Positions 4,624-58,559 of a DNA stretch of 64,000 nucleotides are shown here, piece by piece. Source of the DNA: an uncultured Gammaproteobacteria bacterium (GTDB lineage Bacteria > Patescibacteriota > Patescibacteriia > Magasanikbacterales > UBA922); the NCBI GenBank assembly GCA_964592785.1, contig CAZQHU010000004.1, positions 72 through 64,071 on the forward strand. Reading direction: 5' to 3'. A program made the position numbers and the translations under genes. Each line of letters begins with the position of its first letter. The first letter of the stretch is position 1. A model generated the notes under the pieces. The model ran no database searches, was not told where the DNA came from, and worked only from the letters and a program-made list of their open reading frames with translations.

Positions 4624-5160
4624 TTACTTTTCAACATTAAATACTGTATTAAGATTTACAACAGGACCCTTTGCAAATGCTTCTAATGACTTCCTTAAAT
4701 ATTCTGCACTTTGTTGAGAATCATAACCAGCCTCAACAGTTCTATCAAAATAAGCAACGAAACGTTCAGGATATCTTTCCACATCAGCCAACTCTTCAAA
4801 AGTCTGTTTCAAAGTACCTCCAAAATTTGTATTATAAAATTCAAGTCTTGTTTTCAAAGTAGCAATTCTTTCTTTCAAACCATCAACAATTTCTTCTAAC
4901 CTTTTTTTATCAAATATTCCATTATCTGTATTTTCTGCTGTTAAAGTTTCTTCTAAACCATGCAAAAAATCTTGTAAACCTACTATTGAATTCTGAACAT
5001 CATATTCTGCCTGATTTCTATCTTCTAACTTTTTTTCTTGGTCATTTGTAGTTTCAGATGCTCTCCAGTCAACATCTCTTTGTCTTGGATCTAAATTATC
5101 TCCTGTACCCATATATTTTAATATAAAAATTAATTCTCCTTTTACTTTGAATATTCCCAT
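4624..5160 (-). CDS. Hypothetical protein
   Basis: Long ORF with protein-like composition. No family recognised. Confidence 0.45.
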   Translation of the reverse strand: MGIFKVKGELIFILKYMGTGDNLDPRQRDVDWRASETTNDQEKKLEDRNQAEYDVQNSIVGLQDFLHGLEETLTAENTDNGIFDKKRLEEIVDGLKERIATLKTRLEFYNTNFGGTLKQTFEELADVERYPERFVAYFDRTVEAGYDSQQSAEYLRKSLEAFAKGPVVNLNTVFNVEK

Positions 5161-19463: not shown

Positions 19464-19524
19464 AAATAAACCTAAAATAAGTTAGAAATATAGTAATATT
19501 TTAGCAAAAATAATTAATTTTGGC

Positions 19525-19572
19525 AATAAAAATGGAAGACCCCCGTCCTGACGTGAAGTCGGAACGAGGGTC
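19525..19572 (-). terminator. Intrinsic terminator for the GC-rich ORF
   Basis: Hairpin AGACCCCCGTCC..GGAACGAGGGTCT followed by TCCATTTTTATT when read on the minus strand. Confidence 0.45.
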
Positions 19573-19634
19573 TATTTTACACCTCCCTTTTGAAAACCAA
19601 ATGATCAGATATCGAACAAATTTTCACTTTCCTA

Positions 19635-20462
19635 TCAACCCAGGGTCACCACCCCCAGAGCCAGACAACCAAGATCGTCTTCGCTCGAGTCATCAAAACG
19701 CCAAATACAATCAAGGCCACCCTGGGCATCACGTCTCAAACTGAAATGCTGAGCATCATCAAACTTGGTACTGGTTCGCACGTACTTACCTTGGAGTGGC
19801 TGTGGTTCGCCAGTAATGAACTCATGGCTCTGGATGACGAGAGTGCCCAGAGACACGCTGCCATGGATAAGCTTGAAGTTCAAACCCAATTTCTGACCAA
19901 CAGTAGCAAGCAGATCTTTCTGCTCCTTCAAGGTTTTCCCGATACTGCCAGGCAACACGAACGGTGCACCAATGATGAGATGTCTGCCTTTTCCACGAAG
20001 CTCATTGGGGAGACTGCCGTGGGCAAACAACCTCATAAGATTCAAGTTATTGTGGCAGGGACCACAATACTTGGATGCCACCTGCACGTTGAACGGTAGA
20101 TGGAATTCCGTATCCACGAAACGTACGATGGGGGTGACCGGTTGTACACCATTGTCCGCGACAAAATCCCGCATGTGGCGCAAGTTCCCAGAAAGCCAGT
20201 TTGGCACACCTGGTAATTCCCCAATATCCAAATCTCTAAGTGGCTTGACAAACATGGACAAAGTCTCACCACGGAATCTACGCTCCACATTCATGGATGC
20301 GACTTGTAAGGCAGTGGGCGAAACGGTGACGAGATTTCTGGCTTGCAGATCACGAGCCACCCCCCAGTTACCCATCAACCAGTCGAACACTCGTTCGGCT
20401 TCCTCTGGTTTCTGCCTATCAATCCTTGCCAATTCATGGAAACTTCTTGGAAACAGTGACAT
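19635..20462 (-). CDS. Hypothetical protein encoded in a GC-rich, compositionally foreign segment
   Basis: Markedly GC-rich. Strong RBS GGAGGAAACCAAG-ATG, unlike native genes. No family recognised. Confidence 0.45.
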   Translation of the reverse strand: MSLFPRSFHELARIDRQKPEEAERVFDWLMGNWGVARDLQARNLVTVSPTALQVASMNVERRFRGETLSMFVKPLRDLDIGELPGVPNWLSGNLRHMRDFVADNGVQPVTPIVRFVDTEFHLPFNVQVASKYCGPCHNNLNLMRLFAHGSLPNELRGKGRHLIIGAPFVLPGSIGKTLKEQKDLLATVGQKLGLNFKLIHGSVSLGTLVIQSHEFITGEPQPLQGKYVRTSTKFDDAQHFSLRRDAQGGLDCIWRFDDSSEDDLGCLALGVVTLG

Positions 20463-20615
20463 CTTGGTTTCCTCCTGCCAACAAGCAATTCATCTTGGCA
20501 AAAAACGCCAGCCCGGCATTTCCCCCCAAAGATGGTAAACTTGTTAGCAAATTGCCGGAGACCTCCCCCGACTTCTTGTCTTAAAATTAACACTTTTTTG
20601 AATTTTTGTCAATAC

Positions 20616-43808: not shown

Positions 43809-45341
43809 AAAGGAGGTGATCCATCCCCAGCTTCCGCTAGGGATGCCTTGTTACGACTTCACCCTGATCACTGACCCTGCCTTAGTCCCCATAAGGAGCC
43901 TTTGGGCGTTGCCAGCTTTCGTGGTGTGACGGGCGGTGAGTACAAGACCCGAGAACGTATTCACCGCGCCGTATCTGATGCGCGGTTACTAGCGAATCCA
44001 ACTTCATGAGGACGAATTTCAGCCCTCAATCCGAACTGAGGCTAGCTTTTTGGGATTAGCTCCATCTCGCGATTTAGCAACCCTTTGTACTAGCCATTGT
44101 ATCATGCGTGTAGCCCTGGACGTAAGAGCCATGCTGATTTGACGTCGTCCCCGCCTTCCTCCCGTTTAAACGGGCAGTCTCGTGTGTACATTTAACACAC
44201 AATAGGGGTTGCGCTCGTTACCAGACTTAACTGTACACCTCACGGCACGAGCTGACGGCAACCATGCAGCACCTATCTAACACCTTCGAAAGCGGGCAAT
44301 GTTTCCATCGCCTTGCAGTTAGTAGTTGAGCCCAGGTAAGGTTCGCCGCGTACCGTCGAATTAAACCGCATGATCCTCCGCTTGTGCGGGTCCCCGTCTA
44401 TTCCTTTGAGTTTTAACCTTGCGGCCGTACTCCCCAGGCGGTGTACTTAACGCGTTTGCTTTTTAAAACGGCACTGAGAGGGTCGATACTCCCAATACCT
44501 AGTACACATCGTTTAGGGCGTGGACTACTAGGGTATCTAATCCTATTCGCTACCCACGCTTTGGTCCATGAGTGTCAGGCATGTTATAGCAAGCTGCCTT
44601 CGCCTTTGGTGTTCCTATCGATATCAGCGCTTATTACGACTACACCGATAGTTCCGCTTGCCTCTCCCAGCCTCCAGTCTGATAGTATCAACAGCAGTCC
44701 CGGAGTTAAGCCCCGGGATTTAACCATTGACTTTTCAGACAACCTGCGGACGCTTTACGCCCAATGAATCCGGATAACGTTTGAGGTCTCTGTATTACCG
44801 CTGCTGCTGGCACAGAGTTAGCAACCTCTTATTCCTAGGGTACCGTCACAAATTCGTCCCCTATAAAAGCAGTTTACACCCCGAAGGGCTTCATCCTGCA
44901 CGCGGCGTCGCTCCATCAGACTTTCGTCCATTGTGGAATATTCTTGACTGCAGCCTCCCGTAGGAGTCTGGGCAGTATCTCAGTCCCAGTGAGGCAGGTC
45001 ACGCTCTCACGCCTGCTACCCGTCATAGCCTTGGTGGTCTATTACACCGCCAACTAGCTGATAGGACATAGGCCTTTCTCCAAGTGATAAATCTTTAAAT
45101 GCGAATGACTTTTGTCCCCGCATTGCCATCGGGTATTAATCCACCTTTCGGTGGGCTATCCCCGTCTTGGAGGTAAGTTACCAATGTGTTACTCACCCGT
45201 TTGCCGCTCGTAACCCGTCCAACACTCTACCAACATTTATAAAAAATATTTTTAGAGTGTTGGTCGGGCACGTCGCTCGACTTGCATGCCTTAAACACGC
45301 CGCCAACGTTCATCCTGAGCCAGGATCAAACTCTCAGTAAA
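43809..45341 (-). rRNA. rrs: 16S ribosomal RNA, about 1.53 kb, not linked to a 23S
   Basis: 5' end GAGTTTGATCCTGGCTCAG (rc at 45315-45334). 3' end GGATCACCTCCTTT (rc at 43809-43822). Internal universal segments such as GTGCCAGCAGCCGCGGTAATAC (rc at about 44790) are present. Confidence 0.9.
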
Positions 45342-45823
45342 GAGTTTGAATCCGATCTAACTAAATTAATAGTTAGAGGTTTATGATTCTAATTTGAATA
45401 GACATTGACAATGATCTTTGTCACGTTCTTGTTGTGAATCCTTACTTTTTTTGGATTTGGTTGATCTTGTAATTTTAAATTGTCAAAGTACATCTTTCTT
45501 TTTTAAGAAAGAAAAAAGAGGAACCAAAATTTTGAGTTACTCTTTTTTCTTTCCAGTATCCGGGTTTCACTTCGTTACGCCCGGTAAACCCGTTCTTTTT
45601 CAAAAAGATGGTTTACCCGGCGTAGTCCGCTTTGAGCGGACGAAGTCGGGACTTAGAAAAAGCGTTTGATTGTGAAGGGGTTGTTTAGTTTGCTGGGCAA
45701 TTGTACATTTATTTAAAAGAGTTGTCAAGAGCAAGATATGCACAGGAATGGGGATAAAAAAACAAAATACATAGAAAACGGAATAAAAAAAAACAAAATA
45801 TTTTATTTATCCACACCTTACCC

Positions 45824-45851
45824 TTGAAATCTCTCTTTTTTTTGTTATGAT
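45824..45851 (+). promoter_or_regulatory. Candidate promoter TTGAAA-16-TATGAT for the GC-rich ORF
   Basis: Hexamers upstream of a GTGC/GCAC hairpin and the GGAGG RBS. Confidence 0.3.
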
Positions 45852-45891
45852 ACTATGTCGTGCAAAGTCGCACGCATCAATGGAGGAAACC

Positions 45892-46236
45892 ATGAGCTTG
45901 TCAAGTGAACTTCAAGATGCAAGCAGTGACGCCCAAAGAAAACAGGAAGAAAGAAAGAGACAGGAGCAGAAGAATCACGAAATTCTTGAGCATACAATCA
46001 TGCTCAGAAGAATTGAAGAAATCCAGAGACACATGAAGGTGCGTGCCGACCAAGGATACAGTCATATTGTCGTTGAACTAGAGTACGATTTCCGAGGTTG
46101 TACCGAACGCTTCGGATCCGAAGCGGTAAGGGAACTGGTGAACTGGGCACATGCCCAAGGATTCCAAACCAAGGAAGATTGGTGTAACGGAACCCAATTC
46201 ACTCCAGGGTGTAGAATTCTTTACATCATGTGGTAA
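45892..46236 (+). CDS. Hypothetical protein in a moderately GC-rich foreign-looking segment
   Basis: Strong RBS GGAGGAAACC-ATG. The ORF-track start at 45847 lies upstream of the RBS; 45892 is preferred. Confidence 0.4.
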   Translation: MSLSSELQDASSDAQRKQEERKRQEQKNHEILEHTIMLRRIEEIQRHMKVRADQGYSHIVVELEYDFRGCTERFGSEAVRELVNWAHAQGFQTKEDWCNGTQFTPGCRILYIMW

Positions 46237-46561
46237 ATCCTTCCTAATACTGGTAGGCAATCTACCCTGCGGGCTTCCCAACGCTCTTTTCATTCACACT
46301 CCAGCCCGTCAGAATGTTTGCAAGGTTTGCAACTATTCAAAAATGCTGGGGTGATGAAAAAATAAAAACACCACAATGAAAGTTGGGTGTTTTTTATTAT
46401 TTATTTTTGATGCATTACGTCCCTCCCTTAGTAAAGAGAGGACAGGAGGGATATTGGCCAACATCCCCCTTACTCCCTCTTTGATAAGGGGAAAATATTT
46501 TGTCGCCACTTCTTTATTTCTTCATGATCACCCCGTCTTCGCTAAAGCTACGCCGGATAAA

Positions 46562-47437: not shown

Positions 47438-49513
47438 TCACTTCTTCCCTTCAGCAATCTGTGCCTCAATATTTTTTGGCACATCTGCATAATGATCAAA
47501 TTCCATAGCATAAGTAGCCCGGCCCTGTGACATGGAGCGTAAATCTGTAGCATAACCAAACATTTCTGAAAGAGGAACCATGGCGCGCACCACTTTGGCA
47601 GTACCACGCTGAGTCATCTCCAAAATCTGTCCGCGTTTGGAATTAAGATTGCCGATCACATCACCCATGTATTCTTCTGGAGTGGTCACTTCTACTTTCA
47701 TTACTGGTTCCAAAACTACAGGACTAGCTTTTTTGGCAGCCTCTTGAAAGGCCATAATACCAGCCATTTTGAAAGCGATTTCTGAAGAGTCAACTTCATG
47801 GTAAGAACCATCAAAAACAGTCACTTGCAAATCCACCACTGGGAAACCAGCTACCACACCTTTATCAATTGCTTCTTTCACGCCTTTTTGAATGGCTGGA
47901 ATATATTCGCGAGGAATAACACCACCTTTGACTTCATCAATAAATTCAAATCCTTGTCCACGTTCACGAGGTTCAAGTTTGAGATAGCAATGACCATATT
48001 GACCGCGTCCACCAGACTGTTTGATGTATTTACCTTCAGCTTCGGCACTCTGGCGAATAGTCTCTTTATAAGCTACTTGTGGCTTACCAACTTTGGCCTC
48101 CACTTTAAATTCACGCTTCATGCGATCCACAATGATTTCCAAATGCAATTCACCCATACCAGAAATAATAGTCTGTAATGTTTCTTGATCAGTATGAACT
48201 CGAAAAGTCGGATCTTCTTCAGCCAACTTTTGTAAAGCCAAGCTCATCTTCTCAGCATCAGCTTTGGTGTTTGGTTCAATGGCAATATCAATCACTGGTT
48301 CAGGGAAAACAATTTTTTCCAAAAGTACCGGACGATTTTCTGCGCAAAGAGTATCTCCAGTAGTGGTAGATTTAAGTCCTACTGCCGCAGCAATCTCTCC
48401 AGCATAAACTTCATTTACATCTTCTCGATGATTGGCATGAAGTCTAACAATACGACTAATACGTTCTTTTTCTCCATTGGAAGTATTGATTACATAGCTA
48501 CCAGCAGTCAAAACACCGGAATAAACTCGAAAAAAAGCCAACTTTCCCACAAAAGGATCAGTGGCTATTTTGAAAGCCAAAGCAGTAAAAGGAGCACTGT
48601 CATCAGCTTTAACAATTATTTCTTTGGTTTCATCATTAGGATCATGAGCTTTGATATCTGGCACATCCAGAGGTGAAGGTAAGAAGTAAGTGACAGCATC
48701 CAACACCAACTGCACCCCCATATTTTGCAAAGCTGAACCACACATTACAGGGTACATCTCATCTTGCAAAACCAAAGCGCGAATGCCAGACTTTATTTCA
48801 ACTTCAGTAAATTCTCCACCATTTAAATATTTATTCATGAGTTCATCATTAGCTTCAGCCACTTTTTCCAACAATTGAGCCCGATAAGTTTGAGCTCTTT
48901 CCAATTCTTCAGCTGGAATTTCCATTTCCACGATATTTTCACCGCTCTTACCTTCAAATTTATAAGCTTTCATTTTGATAAGATCAATGATCCCGGAAAA
49001 AGAAGATTCAGCCCCGATTGATAATTGAATAGCAAAAGCTTTGGGGGATAATCTTTCTTTAATGGAATTTAAACTCATATAAAAATCCGCACCCATCTTG
49101 TCCATTTTATTGACAAAACAAATTCTTGGCACGCGATATTTATCAGCTTGACGCCAAACTGTTTCAGATTGTGGCTCCACACCTTGGGAACCATCAAAAA
49201 CAGCTACTGCGCCATCGAGTACGCGCAAAGATCTTTCTACTTCCACAGTAAAGTCCACGTGGCCGGGAGTGTCAATAAGATTGATACGATGATCTTTCCA
49301 AAAACAAGTGGTGGCAGCTGAAGTAATAGTGATACCACGTTCTTTTTCTTGTTCCATCCAATCCATTTCAGCGGCTCCTTCATGTACTTCACCAATCTTA
49401 TGTTTCTTACCAGTATAAAAAAGAATACGTTCTGAAACAGTAGTCTTACCGGCATCAATATGAGCGGCAATACCAATGTTCCTGGTTTTGTCTAATGAAT
49501 ATTCACGAGGCAT
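47438..49513 (-). CDS. fusA: Elongation factor G
   Basis: [17 protein letters not shown]. Start at [15 protein letters not shown] (49513) matches orthologues. The upstream ATG at 49525 lies inside the repeat terminus. Confidence 0.9.
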
Positions 49514-49520
49514 AAGTTTA

Positions 49521-49646
49521 TTCATTCCGAGCGTAGCGAGGAATCTTTCTCACCTCGTACATATCGGAGTGTTTAGTTATTGATTTAAAAAAGTTTGTAA
49601 TAGGAAAGATTCCTCACCCTCGCTTGAACTCGGGTTCGGAATGAAC
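49521..49646. repeat. GTCATTCC-family MITE/REP-like element filling the rpsG-fusA spacer
   Basis: TIRs TTCATTCCGAGCGTAGCGAGGAATCTTTC and GAAAGATTCCTCACCCTCGC...CGGAATGAAC, with a central GATTTAAAAAAGTTT. Its terminus CGGAATGAATAAACTT lies immediately 5' of the fusA ATG. Confidence 0.6.
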
Positions 49647-50120
49647 CTACCGACGAGCGAAGTGAGCAAAAGCTTTGTTGGCTTCAGCCATGCGCACCAC
49701 ATCTTCTTTTTTCTTCATCGCGCCACCGGTTCCTGCCAAAACATCCAACATTTCACTAGAAAGTTTTTCAATCATGTTTTGACCTTTACGTTCACGCGCA
49801 GCACCAATAATCCAACGAAAGGCCAAAGCATTTTGACGCTCTGCTGGTACTGGCATTGGCACTTGGTAGTTCGCGCCACCGACACGACGAGAGCGGACTT
49901 CAACTGAAGGCCTGACTGTGTCCATCACTTGTTCAAATAAAACTACAGCATCAGCTTTTTTAACTTCTTGAAGTTTTTCCAAAGCACCATAAACAATTTC
50001 TTGAGCTCGGGTCTTTTTTCCGCTTTCCATGATCATGTTAATAAATTTGGCCAACAAAACACTATTATATTTTGGTTCTGGAGCCAAAACTCTTTTTGGT
50101 ACACTTTTTCCTCTAGGCAT
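49647..50120 (-). CDS. rpsG: 30S ribosomal protein S7
   Basis: MPRGKSVPKRVLAPEPKYNS signature. Confidence 0.9.
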   Translation of the reverse strand: MPRGKSVPKRVLAPEPKYNSVLLAKFINMIMESGKKTRAQEIVYGALEKLQEVKKADAVVLFEQVMDTVRPSVEVRSRRVGGANYQVPMPVPAERQNALAFRWIIGAARERKGQNMIEKLSSEMLDVLAGTGGAMKKKEDVVRMAEANKAFAHFARR

Positions 50121-50128
50121 ATAGTTCG

Positions 50129-50262
50129 TTCATTCCGAGCGTAGCGAGGAATCCTTCTTGCCTCGAACGTAGTCGGAATGTTTATTTTATGATTTAAAAA
50201 AGTTTTAATTTAAGAAAGATTCCTCGTTTAGTCCGTGCGAACGGACTCACTCGGAATGAACC
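50129..50262. repeat. GTCATTCC-family MITE/REP-like element filling the rpsL-rpsG spacer
   Basis: Near-identical to 49521-49646: TTCATTCCGAGCGTAGCGAGGAATCC...GAAAGATTCCTCG...CTCGGAATGAAC. Its terminus lies 9 nt upstream of the rpsG ATG. Confidence 0.6.
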
Positions 50263-50267
50263 TAAAA

Positions 50268-50693
50268 TTATTTACCAGCTTTCGGTCTCTTGGCTCCGTA
50301 GATAGAACGACCTTTACGACGGGCTTCTACACCCTGGGTGTCATAAACACCGCGAACAATATGATAACGAACACCTGGCAAGTCTTTTACACGGCCACCG
50401 CGAATAAGCACAATAGAGTGCTCTTGAAGATTGTGTCCTTCACCAGGAATATAAGCGATTACTTCCAAACCATTGCTAAGTCTAACCTTGGCGACTTTAC
50501 GCAAAGCTGAGTTTGGTTTCTTTGGAGTAGTGGTATAAACCTTGGTACAAACTCCACGTTTAAATGGGCAACCGCGACGCAAAGTGGTCTTGGCGCGATG
50601 CAAACTATCGTAGGTAAATTGCAAAGCCGGTGACTTGGATTTCACTGTCTTTGGATGTCTTCCCTTACGAATGATTTGATTCATTGTAGGCAT
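50268..50693 (-). CDS. rpsL: 30S ribosomal protein S12
   Basis: [12 protein letters not shown]...[11 protein letters not shown] signature. Confidence 0.95.
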
Positions 50694-50699
50694 AAGATT

Positions 50700-50817
50700 T
50701 ATTCATTCCGAACGAAGTGAGGAATCTTTTCCAACACGTACGTTCTTAAATAAAATTAAATAAAATAAAATTATTTTTTCTTAATAAAGATCTCTCACCC
50801 TTTGGGCTCGAGATGAA
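50700..50817. repeat. Degenerate third copy of the GTCATTCC-family element upstream of rpsL
   Basis: TTCATTCCGAACGAAGTGAGGAATC...GATCTCTCACCC...CTCGAGATGAAC. Confidence 0.45.
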
Positions 50818-51009
50818 CAAAAAAACGTCCTTTAAAGACGCTAGAAAAAACTATTTTTTCAAACGTCTGCACCTCTTCGGCGCACATTCACCTTGTCCGC
50901 CATAATAGCGGGGGTTACTACGTTGACCACATTCTACAACAAAGCCAAAAACTTGTCAAGTCCCACCCGCAACGCCTGAGCAAGCTCATGCTTACGATGG
51001 CGGGCCGGC

Positions 51010-51038
51010 TTGACAAAATCCAATAAATGTACTATACT
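51010..51038 (+). promoter_or_regulatory. Candidate promoter TTGACA-17-TATACT for the lipoprotein gene
   Basis: Consensus hexamers with 17-nt spacing about 100 nt upstream of the ATG. Confidence 0.35.
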
Positions 51039-51140
51039 TATCAGTCATTACTGTGTCTGTCTTGGACACGATTGACAATCTAGGCACTGGCAGGAAGCCA
51101 GGCTAGTGAATTCATTTCACGGAAGTGAGGAGGAAACACA

Positions 51141-51653
51141 ATGATCCGCATCATCTTGGCCATGACCATGATCCTGTCCCTGGCCGCCTGCAACGACGAC
51201 ATCAAGGCCGAGCTGGCCCAGACCAAGGCCGATCTGGCTCGGGTCCAGTCGGATCTCAACCAGGTGGTCGAGTACCACCGCCTGACCCAGGCGATCCAGG
51301 AGGAGACCATGCTCCTCCAGGATCTGCGCGAACAGACCCAGACTCTGAACAAGGACCTGGACTCCCTGGCCAATCGCGCCATCCTGGCACGGTCAGCACT
51401 GCCTGCGCAGGCCTACCTCTGTAAGGGCAACCGTTCTTGCGAGGAAGAGACGGCAGCCAAGGCCAAGATCGAGGCTGTGAAGATGAATGAGGAAGTCGAC
51501 ACCCTCAATGCCCGATCCAAGCAACTGGGCGAGGAGACCAGCCTCCACATCACTCGACACAAGCAGGCGGAGACGGCCATGAAGGTCGCACGGGCGGCGC
51601 TCCCACCCGATCTGCAAGAACGCCTCCTCGGAGTAAGGGAGTCTTCCCACTAG
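51141..51653 (+). CDS. Coiled-coil lipoprotein encoded in a strongly GC-rich foreign island
   Basis: Signal peptide with lipobox LSLAAC. Strong RBS GAGGAGGAAACACA-ATG. GC content is far above the background. Overlapping antisense ORFs are artefacts of high GC. Confidence 0.6.
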   Translation: MIRIILAMTMILSLAACNDDIKAELAQTKADLARVQSDLNQVVEYHRLTQAIQEETMLLQDLREQTQTLNKDLDSLANRAILARSALPAQAYLCKGNRSCEEETAAKAKIEAVKMNEEVDTLNARSKQLGEETSLHITRHKQAETAMKVARAALPPDLQERLLGVRESSH

Positions 51654-51772
51654 CTCTTTCGCCGTGACGACATACAGTGTCTCTCTGTACCCCGACCCAG
51701 TCGGGAACGCCAGAGGACCCGTGTCACTCACGGCTCACCCTCTATATTTTTCACGAAGAATATTGAGGATAA

Positions 51773-51804
51773 TAAAAAATTCACCTCATCGGTGAATTTT
51801 TTAT
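51773..51804. terminator. Bidirectional intrinsic terminator
   Basis: AAAAAATTCACC-TCATCG-GTGAATTTTTTATTTC. Confidence 0.55.
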
Positions 51805-51832
51805 TTCTGTGTAATCTGTTATTAATCAGTGT

Positions 51833-52450
51833 TTAAAAATACACTCCCCCACCCGTAAACAAACTAGTAAGGAAATAAATAATCGGCTGAATAAAACGAA
51901 AGCCAAAAAATATAAAAGCTATTAAAATTACAAAACCATATTGTTCCAGCATCATTTTGATCTTATACTGGGAATCGGGTAACAAAGCATAAAGCAACTT
52001 GGAACCATCAAGTGGTGGAATCGGCACAAGATTGAATACTGCCAAAAGCACATTGGCATAAACAATAATATAAAGAAAAACTGTCATGTTGGAAATAGGT
52101 AAATAACGAACCAAGAGCCCAAAAACAAAAGCCAATGTCAAATTACTAAGTGGACCGGCTAGAGCCACCCACACCGGTCCCCATTTTTGATCTTTCAAAT
52201 TGTAAGGATTGTAGGGCACTGGCTTGGCATAGGCAAAAAGAAACCTCCCGGCTGTGAAAAAAAATAACAATAGTGGCATTATGATGGTGCCCCATTTATC
52301 TATATGAGCTCGTGGATCCATGGTCAACCGTCCAGCATAGCGCGCTGTCGGATCACCCAGCATATCTGCCATCCAACCATGAGAATACTCATGAATAATG
52401 GAGGAAGGAATAATAACAACGAGAAAAAATAATAAGGGTAAAAAATCCAT
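51833..52450 (-). CDS. Peptidase M50 (site-2 protease-like) membrane metalloprotease
   Basis: HEYSHG (HExxH) in the first TM helix; polytopic. Confidence 0.7.
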   Translation of the reverse strand: MDFLPLLFFLVVIIPSSIIHEYSHGWMADMLGDPTARYAGRLTMDPRAHIDKWGTIIMPLLLFFFTAGRFLFAYAKPVPYNPYNLKDQKWGPVWVALAGPLSNLTLAFVFGLLVRYLPISNMTVFLYIIVYANVLLAVFNLVPIPPLDGSKLLYALLPDSQYKIKMMLEQYGFVILIAFIFFGFRFIQPIIYFLTSLFTGGGVYF

Positions 52451-58176: not shown

Positions 58177-58228
58177 GGTCTTATTTTAGCGGAAAAATCT
58201 CAATTTGGCAATTATCCGCCATTGGCTC

Positions 58229-58257
58229 TTGATTTTATTTAATATTTGATGTATAAT
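58229..58257 (+). promoter_or_regulatory. Promoter TTGATT-17-TATAAT for rpmF-nusB-rnc
   Basis: Hexamers with 17-nt spacing. Confidence 0.45.
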
Positions 58258-58325
58258 ATGCCCAGTTTTATTACAGTCTCCAACCATTTGGAAAAGTTTT
58301 AAAATTTAAAATTAAAAATTTAAAA

Positions 58326-58559
58326 TTGACTAATATGGGTCTCCCATCCAAACAAAGAACCAGTCGTTCCAAACGCGAAAGAGCTTCACATTTTGCTCTC
58401 AAAACCAAAACCAGTGGTAAATGTGAAAAATGCGGTTCAACCACCACCCCACATCGTGCTTGCGCCAGCTGTGGTCACTATCGTGGTCGCCAAGTAATAA
58501 AAGTGGAAAAACGCGCCGCTCGCGCCACTCGTCGAAAAAAATTGATTGGCAAAAAATAA
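58326..58559 (+). CDS. rpmF: 50S ribosomal protein L32
   Basis: [14 protein letters not shown]... plus a CxxC...CxxC zinc ribbon. Start is at 58326 or 58335. Confidence 0.8.

Follow-up and report, generated by a model that had tools for sequence, protein, structure and literature searches.

Why should an AT-rich genome carry, just upstream of a ribosomal protein gene, a short stretch of DNA that is richer in GC than anything around it? The question is raised by 64,000 nucleotides (64 kb) of contig CAZQHU010000004.1 from an uncultured Magasanikbacterales bacterium, a member of the candidate phyla radiation (CPR); this whole stretch is referred to here as the window. A first-pass annotation of the DNA had described, at 50840-51804 between rpsL and an M50 protease gene, a GC-rich island encoding a coiled-coil lipoprotein, with its own promoter, ribosome-binding site (RBS) and terminator, and had looked to Actinobacteria or Proteobacteria for its source. 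With moderate confidence, we favor the view that the island is for the most part a self-contained accessory cassette that is swapped among relatives, was recently imported from a background of higher GC, and specifies an exported protein with the shape of a helical hairpin.

Upstream of rpsL, the window reaches the highest GC content of its 64 kb, 0.618 in the 500-bp window starting at 51151, which is about 5 standard deviations over the mean (0.379, standard deviation 0.047 in 500-bp windows) and exceeds the value for the 16S rRNA gene. The open reading frame (ORF) at 51141-51653 on the plus strand is 61% GC overall, with GC of 0.65, 0.38 and 0.81 at codon positions 1, 2 and 3 (GC1, GC2 and GC3); nine neighboring housekeeping genes have GC3 of 0.26-0.36, and the genome is about 37% GC. 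This ORF is a real protein gene, because GC3 lies far above GC2 in its frame, because the ORF and 24 invariant residues are kept in two homologs, P0004 and P0005, and because the ratio of nonsynonymous to synonymous substitution (dN/dS) is below 1 (0.49/0.84 for the window allele against P0004, the allele of contig L085; NG86 dS). The aligned part of the three proteins spans about 130 residues, and the invariant positions include C-K-x4-C (alignment A2). Overlapping the gene are four antisense ORFs (50 aa or longer) and one ORF in an alternative sense frame; we regard them as by-products of GC-rich DNA poor in stop codons, much as the first-pass annotation had done in calling the antisense ORFs spurious.

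An exhaustive HMMER (phmmer) search of 1.84 billion representative proteins returned only two true relatives of the 170-aa protein, here called X: P0004 (163 aa, E = 6e-32) and P0005 (200 aa, E = 6e-8), both in AT-rich Magasanikbacteria contigs at the same rpsL/M50 site. Word-indexed, exhaustive phmmer and profile searches gave no relatives beyond these two, and P0006 was set aside as a repetitive, low-complexity match. The representatives hold only three X alleles, every one at this site, two of them GC-rich and one AT-rich (GC3 0.24). The gene order in contigs L085 (SRR25621790) and L086 (DRR438529) is rpsG-rpsL on the minus strand, X on the plus strand and M50 on the minus strand; the same arrangement recurs in the JGI contig L098, which was, together with L134, one of the only two relevant loci among the 76 returned by a metagenome DNA-pattern scan. 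The suspected source in Actinobacteria or Proteobacteria found no support, as the homolog search yielded Magasanikbacteria relatives at the same site only. There was also no significant match in Pfam, PHROGs or NCBIfam to X or to the other two GC-elevated ORFs of the window (best for X: DUF2756 in Pfam, E = 0.02, below cutoff; lipo_EMYY, E = 0.013, and lipo_Ag473, E = 0.076, in NCBIfam, far below cutoffs). On these comparisons, X founds a new, very small lineage-restricted protein family.

The segment 50964-51834 is an accessory, strain-variable cassette. Exact-sequence look-ups of the L28 and RpsG (S7) proteins of the window retrieved three contigs from three sequencing runs (L087, L088 and L089) whose M50 side is 99.4-99.7% and whose rpsL side is 98.8% identical to the window; exact look-ups of its X, M50 and RpsL proteins returned no contigs. 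All three jump from 50963 to 51835 via TGTATC, so that exactly 50964-51834 is missing and the M50-to-rpsL gap is 283 bp. A second species has its own independent deletion polymorphism: contig L134, 99% identical to L086, is without about 806 bp (5′ untranslated region [UTR], coding sequence [CDS] and 3′ hairpin) and retains the −35 box and the terminator. Of the interval first proposed for the island, the portion from 50964 onward belongs to this cassette, which extends to 51834 (GC 0.549 over the segment), and 50840-50963 does not, being the native rpsL promoter and leader, present also in strains without the cassette. The parts of the cassette are as follows.

50964-51834, plus strand: the cassette unit, 871 bp, defined by presence/absence; replaced by the 6 nt TGTATC in L087, L088 and L089.
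50964-51008, plus strand: left-end segment, 45 nt, GC-rich (alignment A1); absent from the L085 cassette, with an AT-rich spacer of about 75 nt in its place in L086.
51010-51038, plus strand: promoter-like TTGACA-17 nt-TATACT, 11 of 12 consensus positions; a consensus match only.
51046-51140, plus strand: putative 5′ UTR of about 95 nt, its start placed from the −10 position.
51129-51137, plus strand: Shine-Dalgarno (SD) sequence GGAGG followed by AAAC, 7 nt from GGAGG to ATG, read in the sequence as GAGGAGGAAACACA-ATG.
51141-51653, plus strand: CDS of X, 170 aa, stop codon TAG at 51651-51653; identified by codon-position GC, homologs P0004 and P0005, dN/dS and AlphaFold2.
51141-51191, plus strand: predicted signal peptide with lipobox L-A-A-C and Cys17, from a rule-based test.
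51420-51440, plus strand: codons C94-K-G-N-R-S-C100, the invariant C-K-x4-C at the predicted hairpin tip (alignment A2 and the turn in the model).
51661-51734, plus strand: 3′ UTR hairpin, 27 pairs, minimum free energy −36.3 kcal/mol, z = −4.3.
51771-51805, strand not assigned: putative bidirectional intrinsic terminator with perfect 15-nt arms (51771-51785 and 51791-51805) between an A run and a T run, z = −6.4.
51806-51834, plus strand: AT-rich spacer to the M50 stop codon, from strain comparison.

The promoter, the RBS and the hairpin-T-run terminator named by the first-pass annotation were all found in place. The −35 context of the promoter, CTTGACAAAA, is kept in L085, L086 and L134, and a motif adjacent to the terminator, AATATTGAGRATAATAAAAAA, in L085, L086, L098 and L134. 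The terminator, a consensus and energy match only, is placed to serve both the cassette gene and the convergent M50 gene. At its right end the cassette stops within the M50 stop codon (TAA in the window, TGA in the empty allele), and its left end is 4 nt from the −35 box of the minus-strand rpsL promoter-like site. From these elements, the sigma-70-type promoter, back to back with that of rpsL, would be strong and drive a transcript of about 760 nt; the SD would give efficient initiation in a genome where SDs are rare; the conserved 3′ hairpin would probably stabilize the mRNA 3′ end or bind a factor; and the bidirectional terminator would insulate the cassette from the convergent M50 gene and at the same time supply M50 with a terminator that the empty allele lacks.

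The gene tree of X conflicts with the tree of its flanks, and the cassette is a mosaic. L085 and L086 are close in their flanks (RpsL 99%, RpsG 96% and M50 92% identical; dS 0.3-0.7), but between their X alleles identity falls to 24% and GC3 differs (0.79 vs 0.24). The flanks of the window are distant (M50 79%, dS about 1 to 1.6), yet X of the window shares 45-51% identity with the L085 allele. At the DNA level the window CDS matches L085 only (65% over 362 nt); from the 3′ UTR hairpin through the terminator to the spacer, the window cassette instead resembles L086 and L098 (81% over 164 nt). The 5′ UTR of the window cassette is co-linear with that of L086 and homologous to it throughout (AGTCATTA, CTAGGCA, TTCATTTYAC; alignment A4), with GC-rich insertions. 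The 3′ UTR hairpin, common to the AT-rich alleles of L086 and L098 and missing in L085, has three pairs changed on both sides, its stems having moved from AU to GC in a compensatory manner; a covariance model of it (R1) matched these three cassettes only and no further copies in 600 kb of related loci. Within the L085 CDS itself there is a jump in GC, with GC3 of 0.44 in the codons of the transmembrane (TM) anchor and 0.85 in the remainder. Together, the discordance and the mosaicism argue for allele replacement by recombination among relatives, and not for a single jump from a distant phylum. We propose that X is gained, lost and swapped between relatives, most likely through homologous recombination between the conserved flanking sequences, with some breakpoints falling inside the cassette.

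The high GC content would then most simply be the unameliorated signature of an allele that evolved for long in a higher-GC background and was recently imported, the reservoir being an unsampled relative or an element that carries the same cassette. Glycine, alanine, arginine and proline make up 0.25 of the residues in the GC-rich alleles vs 0.07 in the AT-rich allele. This shift, together with the hairpin pairs changed on both sides, implies that the GC-rich alleles are adapted to high GC at the protein level too and had a long history of GC pressure somewhere. Had both GC-rich alleles diverged to a dS of about 0.8 within genomes whose equilibrium GC3 is about 0.3, moreover, their GC3 would be expected to have fallen well below 0.8, which favors recent and separate imports of the two. 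In the window species, the empty allele shows no cassette remnant, and the 210 bp left of the junction are 93.6% identical between filled and empty strains, compared to 99.7% further left. The cassette can be read, with low certainty, as a recent gain, and the divergent 210 bp as a possible import tract; both the direction of the event and the GC-rich reservoir are what we infer from these patterns.

The site itself is a recurrent one. The order rpmB/M50/rpsL/rpsG is conserved across Patescibacteria, the M50-to-rpsL gap is usually about 200-450 bp, and the rpsL promoter lies 5-60 nt after the M50 stop codon in L005, L011 and L020; the compact M50-rpsL junction is the common state, and in Magasanikbacteria the junction is a recurrent site for variable cargo. 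Unrelated antisense ORFs with GC3 of 0.62-0.85 occupy it in five further contigs:

L007, M50-rpsL gap: a membrane protein.
L008, M50-rpsL gap: a secreted protein.
L009, 6934-8849, M50/rpsL site: two paralogous secreted proteins, GC3 0.78-0.85, with near-identical 5′ regions.
L024, M50-rpsL gap: a lipobox protein.
L037, M50-rpsL gap: a 73-aa ORF.

One of the two L009 proteins carries a lipobox and four thrombospondin type-3 repeats (Pfam E = 6e-31). The GC-rich genes of L007-L009 and L024 have no DNA similarity to the window cassette.

What does the cassette encode? AlphaFold2, run on the three-sequence alignment, predicted with a pLDDT (predicted local distance difference test score) of 88 a helix at residues 2-92, a turn at 93-97, a second helix at 98-153 and a short C-terminal helix. 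X is accordingly modeled as an antiparallel helical hairpin, its turn bracketed by C94 and C100, and the coiled-coil repeats claimed for it correspond in the window allele to a long helical, coiled-coil-like domain. A Foldseek search of the PDB returned generic helical hairpins only (p85 iSH2, Rad50, Vipp1/PspA; E > 0.07). The lipobox rule of the PS51257 type calls for a positive N-terminus, a hydrophobic stretch and [LIVMFWSTAG]2-[LIVMFYSTAGCQ]-[AGS]-C with the Cys at 15-35. The N-terminus of the window allele, MIRIILAMTMILSLAAC, with R3 and Cys17, agrees with it and bears out the lipoprotein signal first noted for this ORF; P0004 and P0005 fail the rule and carry an uncleaved TM anchor. Since the lipobox is found in the window allele only and the homologs have TM anchors, membrane tethering is common to the family and lipidation is not. 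X is probably exported, and the window allele would be lipid-anchored at Cys17; the enzymes that would process such a signal, Lgt and LspA, were not found, as LGT and Peptidase_A8 gave no match among the ten candidate membrane ORFs of the 64-kb window. On the model, X would form a membrane-tethered rod about 10 nm long, and the conserved Cys pair at its tip is likely a disulfide staple. The presence/absence and allele-swap behavior suggest a variable cell-surface protein for which contact with host cells or phages would be the most plausible role. Within the AT-rich form, the X genes of L086 (1671-2273) and L098 (1351-1911) differ in stalk length by a single tandem unit, LTAQIKVQEESNKD (42 nt, 14 aa), and otherwise only in one synonymous change.

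The first-pass annotation had also held that the strong SD, like the composition, was alien to this genome, and the counts agree. The 3′ end of the 16S rRNA (43809-43830, minus strand) retains the anti-SD CCUCCU (...GGAUCACCUCCUUUCU); the motif has been lost in parts of Parcubacteria (PMC9297842), which is not so in the window genome. The native genes almost never carry an SD: GGAGG lies within 22 nt of the start in only 4 of 70 window ORFs, two of which are GC-elevated ORFs, and in the third GC-elevated ORF it precedes an internal ATG at 45892. Every X allele has a strong SD, the AT-rich one included. The longer RBS signature GGAGGAAAC, said to be shared by the three GC-rich ORFs, does stand before all three; it occurs 3 times in the window vs 0.39 expected (20467-20475, minus strand; 45882, plus strand; 51129, plus strand), each copy 1-4 nt before the ATG of a GC-elevated ORF. 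It also serves as the RBS of the unrelated hot-spot gene in L007, and among its 8 occurrences in 880 kb of related loci, 4 are the RBS of GC-elevated ORFs or of the L007 gene. The shared signature is real, and could reflect either a shared source or convergent selection for strong initiation. A single donor for the three ORFs is not indicated, as their GC3 values differ (0.81, 0.53 and 0.46).

Beside the cassette, the two other GC-elevated ORFs of the window also lie in compact units. At 19520-20610 (minus strand), a GC-elevated autonomous unit comprises a promoter, a 5′ UTR of about 110 nt, GGAGGAAAC and a 275-aa ORFan (GC3 0.53); its ORF (19635-20462) was found in four other (Logan) assemblies at 99.1-99.5% identity. 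Homologs of the ORFan are 35-37% identical, and the one in L166 (GC3 0.65) shares the 5′ UTR (aagaagYcgggg...aaatgccggg...ggcgttt), which may be a cis-regulatory leader. At 45800-46360 (plus strand), by the 16S rRNA promoter region, CTTGAAA...TATGAT and GGAGGAAACC-ATG precede a 114-aa ORFan (GC3 0.46) followed by a terminator; this ORFan had no significant family match in Pfam, PHROGs or NCBIfam. The opposite compositional outlier is a 178-aa ORF at 4624-5160 (minus strand), with GC3 of 0.13 and no Pfam match.

A wider reading of these features, which we regard as doubtful, is that Magasanikbacteria possess a novel exchange system in which GC-rich, SD-led promoter-to-terminator units, often with GGAGGAAAC, are swapped from a high-GC reservoir into fixed intergenic sites such as M50/rpsL. 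It seems similarly doubtful that the units as a class encode secreted or anchored proteins and draw on an unsampled sister lineage or an extrachromosomal element as reservoir, and a variant in which the GC richness is actively generated at such sites commands just as little confidence. If true, the system would give these episymbionts a rapidly changeable cell surface.

Several points weigh against our preferred reading, the recent import of an exchanged cassette. No GC-rich genome or element with an X homolog was found in the 1.84 billion representatives or in IMG/VR, INPHARED or PLSDB, and the proposed GC-rich reservoir is hypothetical; both GC-rich alleles come from AT-rich genomes only; and the flanking genes have diverged at least as far in dS (1.0-1.6) as the two alleles have (0.84). 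No terminal inverted repeats, target-site duplication or recombinase were found at the cassette or in its neighborhood. In the left flank, moreover, the surplus mismatches are concentrated in two small hairpins and may simply mark fast-evolving sites.

The strongest rival, in our judgment an unlikely one, draws on the same facts. In it, X would have descended vertically, and its high GC would have arisen and been actively kept in place through GC-biased gene conversion or through selection on mRNA or codons, with no foreign reservoir; the lack of a GC-rich donor, the origin of the GC-rich alleles in AT-rich genomes and their modest dS all fit, the locus clearly recombines, and the strong SD in all alleles suggests selection for high expression. 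Against it stand the sharp compositional boundaries, one of which lies inside the L085 CDS, a sister genome that holds a GC3 0.24 allele beside an RpsL 99% identical, flanks that stay AT-rich right next to the cassette, and UTRs that are GC-shifted as well as the codons. We know of no bacterial mechanism that raises GC3 from 0.3 to 0.8 over 0.6-0.9 kb.

Direct transfer from a high-GC non-CPR donor, an actinobacterium or proteobacterium and possibly the host cell, was the natural first guess from a GC3 of 0.81, codon choices typical of high-GC bacteria and a strong SD where the native genes have none, and CPR bacteria do acquire islands by horizontal gene transfer (PMC12455944). It now appears quite improbable: neither 1.84 billion representatives nor 5.8 billion clusters hold a homolog beyond the three Magasanikbacteria loci, the promoter, 5′ UTR, 3′ UTR hairpin, terminator and spacer are homologous to the AT-rich L086 allele, and different species have the cassette at the same insertion point and in the same orientation.

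We give an equally low probability to an origin in a phage or other mobile element of Magasanikbacteria, with the cassette as a remnant or moron that might encode, for instance, a lipoprotein of the spanin-like or superinfection-exclusion type. The anatomy is moron-like (own promoter and terminator, deviant composition, position between genes adjacent in relatives), anchored coiled coils with Cys resemble i-spanins, and X has a weak match to the Rz-like spanin PHROG 739 (E = 0.0014, 19.8 bits). That match is confined to residues 5-80, the signal peptide plus generic coiled coil; there are no flanking phage genes and no holin, endolysin or o-spanin partner; and sequence searches of IMG/VR, INPHARED phages and PLSDB plasmids and a fold search of BFVD gave no relative of X.

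An assembly chimera or contamination by high-GC DNA, which the first-pass annotation had named as a possible refutation, is very unlikely: the segment is missing in three assemblies of near-identical strains and the exact X protein occurs in this one NCBI contig only, but two precise false joins would be needed, independent contigs (L085, L086 and L098) hold homologous cassettes at the same site and in the same orientation, the AT-rich cassette ends (promoter, terminator and spacer) are homologous to L086, and the first GC-elevated island of the same contig recurs in four other assemblies. A structured non-coding RNA with an incidental ORF is just as unlikely. In its favor, structured RNAs often account for GC-rich islands in AT-rich genomes, the other GC peak of the window being the 16S gene, and a conserved 3′ UTR hairpin exists; against it, the GC excess falls on codon position 3 of the ORF frame, the protein is conserved and the nucleotides are not (third-position identity of the window CDS to L086 0.23), the AlphaFold2 fold is confident, and Rfam 15 gave nothing at gathering score and only chance-level matches (E ≥ 0.1) in 50650-51850.

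Classes of mobile DNA were considered as well. An insertion sequence, miniature inverted-repeat transposable element, transposon or att-site reading was rejected for want of terminal inverted repeats and in-register direct repeats, the sole boundary repeat being an imperfect 11-mer (50962-50972/51848-51858) out of register with the junctions. An integron gene cassette was rejected because the unit has its own promoter, a 3′ hairpin without R″/R′ GTTRRRY cores, a single copy of the unit and no integrase nearby.

The cassette sits in an otherwise conventional neighborhood. On the minus strand lie fusA (47438-49525), rpsG (49647-50120), rpsL (50268-50693) and the M50 protease gene (51833-52450), with an rpsL-M50 interval of 1140 bp in the window; the wider flanks are fusA-rpsG-rpsL on one side and M50-rpmB-tRNA-Pro-queA on the other. 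The closest species-level GTDB relatives of the M50 protease are Magasanikbacteria genomes (65-81% identity). Two features between rpsL and the cassette lie outside the latter:

50931-50959, minus strand: rpsL promoter-like TTGACA-17 nt-TAGAAT, back to back with the cassette promoter.
50824-50926, minus strand: putative structured rpsL leader (AACGUAGUA-hairpin-GGUGAAK-hairpin-ACGUUUGAA), conserved across loci.

The promoter-like site is retained in the empty allele and conserved across species. The leader motif, AACG(U/G)AGUA-hairpin-G(G/A)(U/A)GAAG-hairpin-ACGUUYGRA, occurs in 11 Magasanikbacteria loci, with a covarying first-hairpin pair (AU in 7 sequences, UA in 4), and is followed by a terminator-like hairpin (50842-50824). 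It had no match in Rfam, and is a candidate ribosomal-protein leader or attenuator. The degenerate repeat reported upstream of rpsL is a repeat of about 105 nt that lies just upstream of the fusA, rpsG and rpsL starts (49515-49620, 50123-50230 and 50696-50801), with 78-86% identity over its first 49 nt and a hairpin, CATTCCGAGCGTAGCGAGGAATC; it is also found in L085. Further along the window, at about 58200-58400, the cumulative GC skew has its minimum and the genes change from the minus to the plus strand, which probably marks the replication origin. Transcription of the plus-strand cassette gene, about 7 kb left of this point, would then run head-on into replication.

The lifestyle of CPR bacteria is one of attachment to other cells, and to our knowledge almost nothing is known of the surface molecules that mediate it or of their variation among strains. 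The locus offers a cleanly delimited single-gene example with filled, empty, deleted and swapped states at one position, and has potential as a marker of surface variation between strains and of recombination among Magasanikbacteria. Orthologs with GC3 of 0.8 and 0.24 in sister genomes provide a test case for the import, retention and loss of composition. It also follows that contamination should not be assumed automatically wherever a CPR metagenome-assembled genome shows a GC-rich patch, and that part of an apparent island, as here, can be a conserved rpsL promoter and leader.

How does the cassette compare with known systems? Among small helical lipoproteins, Braun's lipoprotein Lpp likewise has a lipobox followed by an alanine- and leucine-rich helical rod (C-NDDIKAELAQTKADLARVQSDLNQ... 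in X). Unlike Lpp, X matches no Pfam or NCBIfam family, and the fold predicted for it is not a parallel trimer but an antiparallel hairpin stapled by Cys at its tip; X also has no C-terminal Lys for peptidoglycan linkage, and its homologs are TM-anchored. With Rz-type i-spanins it has in common an N-terminal membrane anchor, an extracytoplasmic two-helix coiled coil and conserved cysteines, but the PHROG 739 match covers only the signal peptide and first helix and there is no lysis cassette or o-spanin. The Rad50/SMC zinc hook resembles it as an antiparallel coiled-coil hairpin with an apical Cys pair (Foldseek template-modeling score about 0.57, E = 0.2), although the spacing in X is C-x5-C instead of CxxC, and X is predicted to be exported and membrane-anchored and has no ATPase head, so that the similarity is generic. 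By the tests applied, the cassette belongs to none of the Lpp, spanin, integron-cassette, transposon or Rfam families.

As a genetic unit it comes closest to two known arrangements. Phage morons, in the definition of Hendrix and Juhala, include bor and lom of lambda; like them, the cassette is an autonomous promoter-gene-terminator unit between genes adjacent in relatives, with deviant composition (GC 0.55-0.61 vs 0.37), and moron cargo is often a lipoprotein or surface protein. It differs in lying in a cellular chromosome (M50/rpsL) with no prophage context, in the exchange of alleles at a fixed site and in the lack of phage homology. Replacement-type flexible genomic islets, or metagenomic islands, share with it a fixed position, presence/absence, divergent alleles, deviant GC, surface cargo and the lack of dedicated mobility genes, exchange presumably proceeding via homologous flanks. 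Here the cassette is a single 170-aa gene, unlike flexible islets, and its alleles are compositionally dimorphic (GC3 0.8 vs 0.24). A literature search found no description of an islet of this type in CPR bacteria, nor any work devoted to GC-rich cassettes or to the processing of lipoproteins in Magasanikbacteria. On present evidence, the cassette is not a new kind of system; it is of a familiar type, a small accessory gene for a surface protein that is exchanged horizontally.

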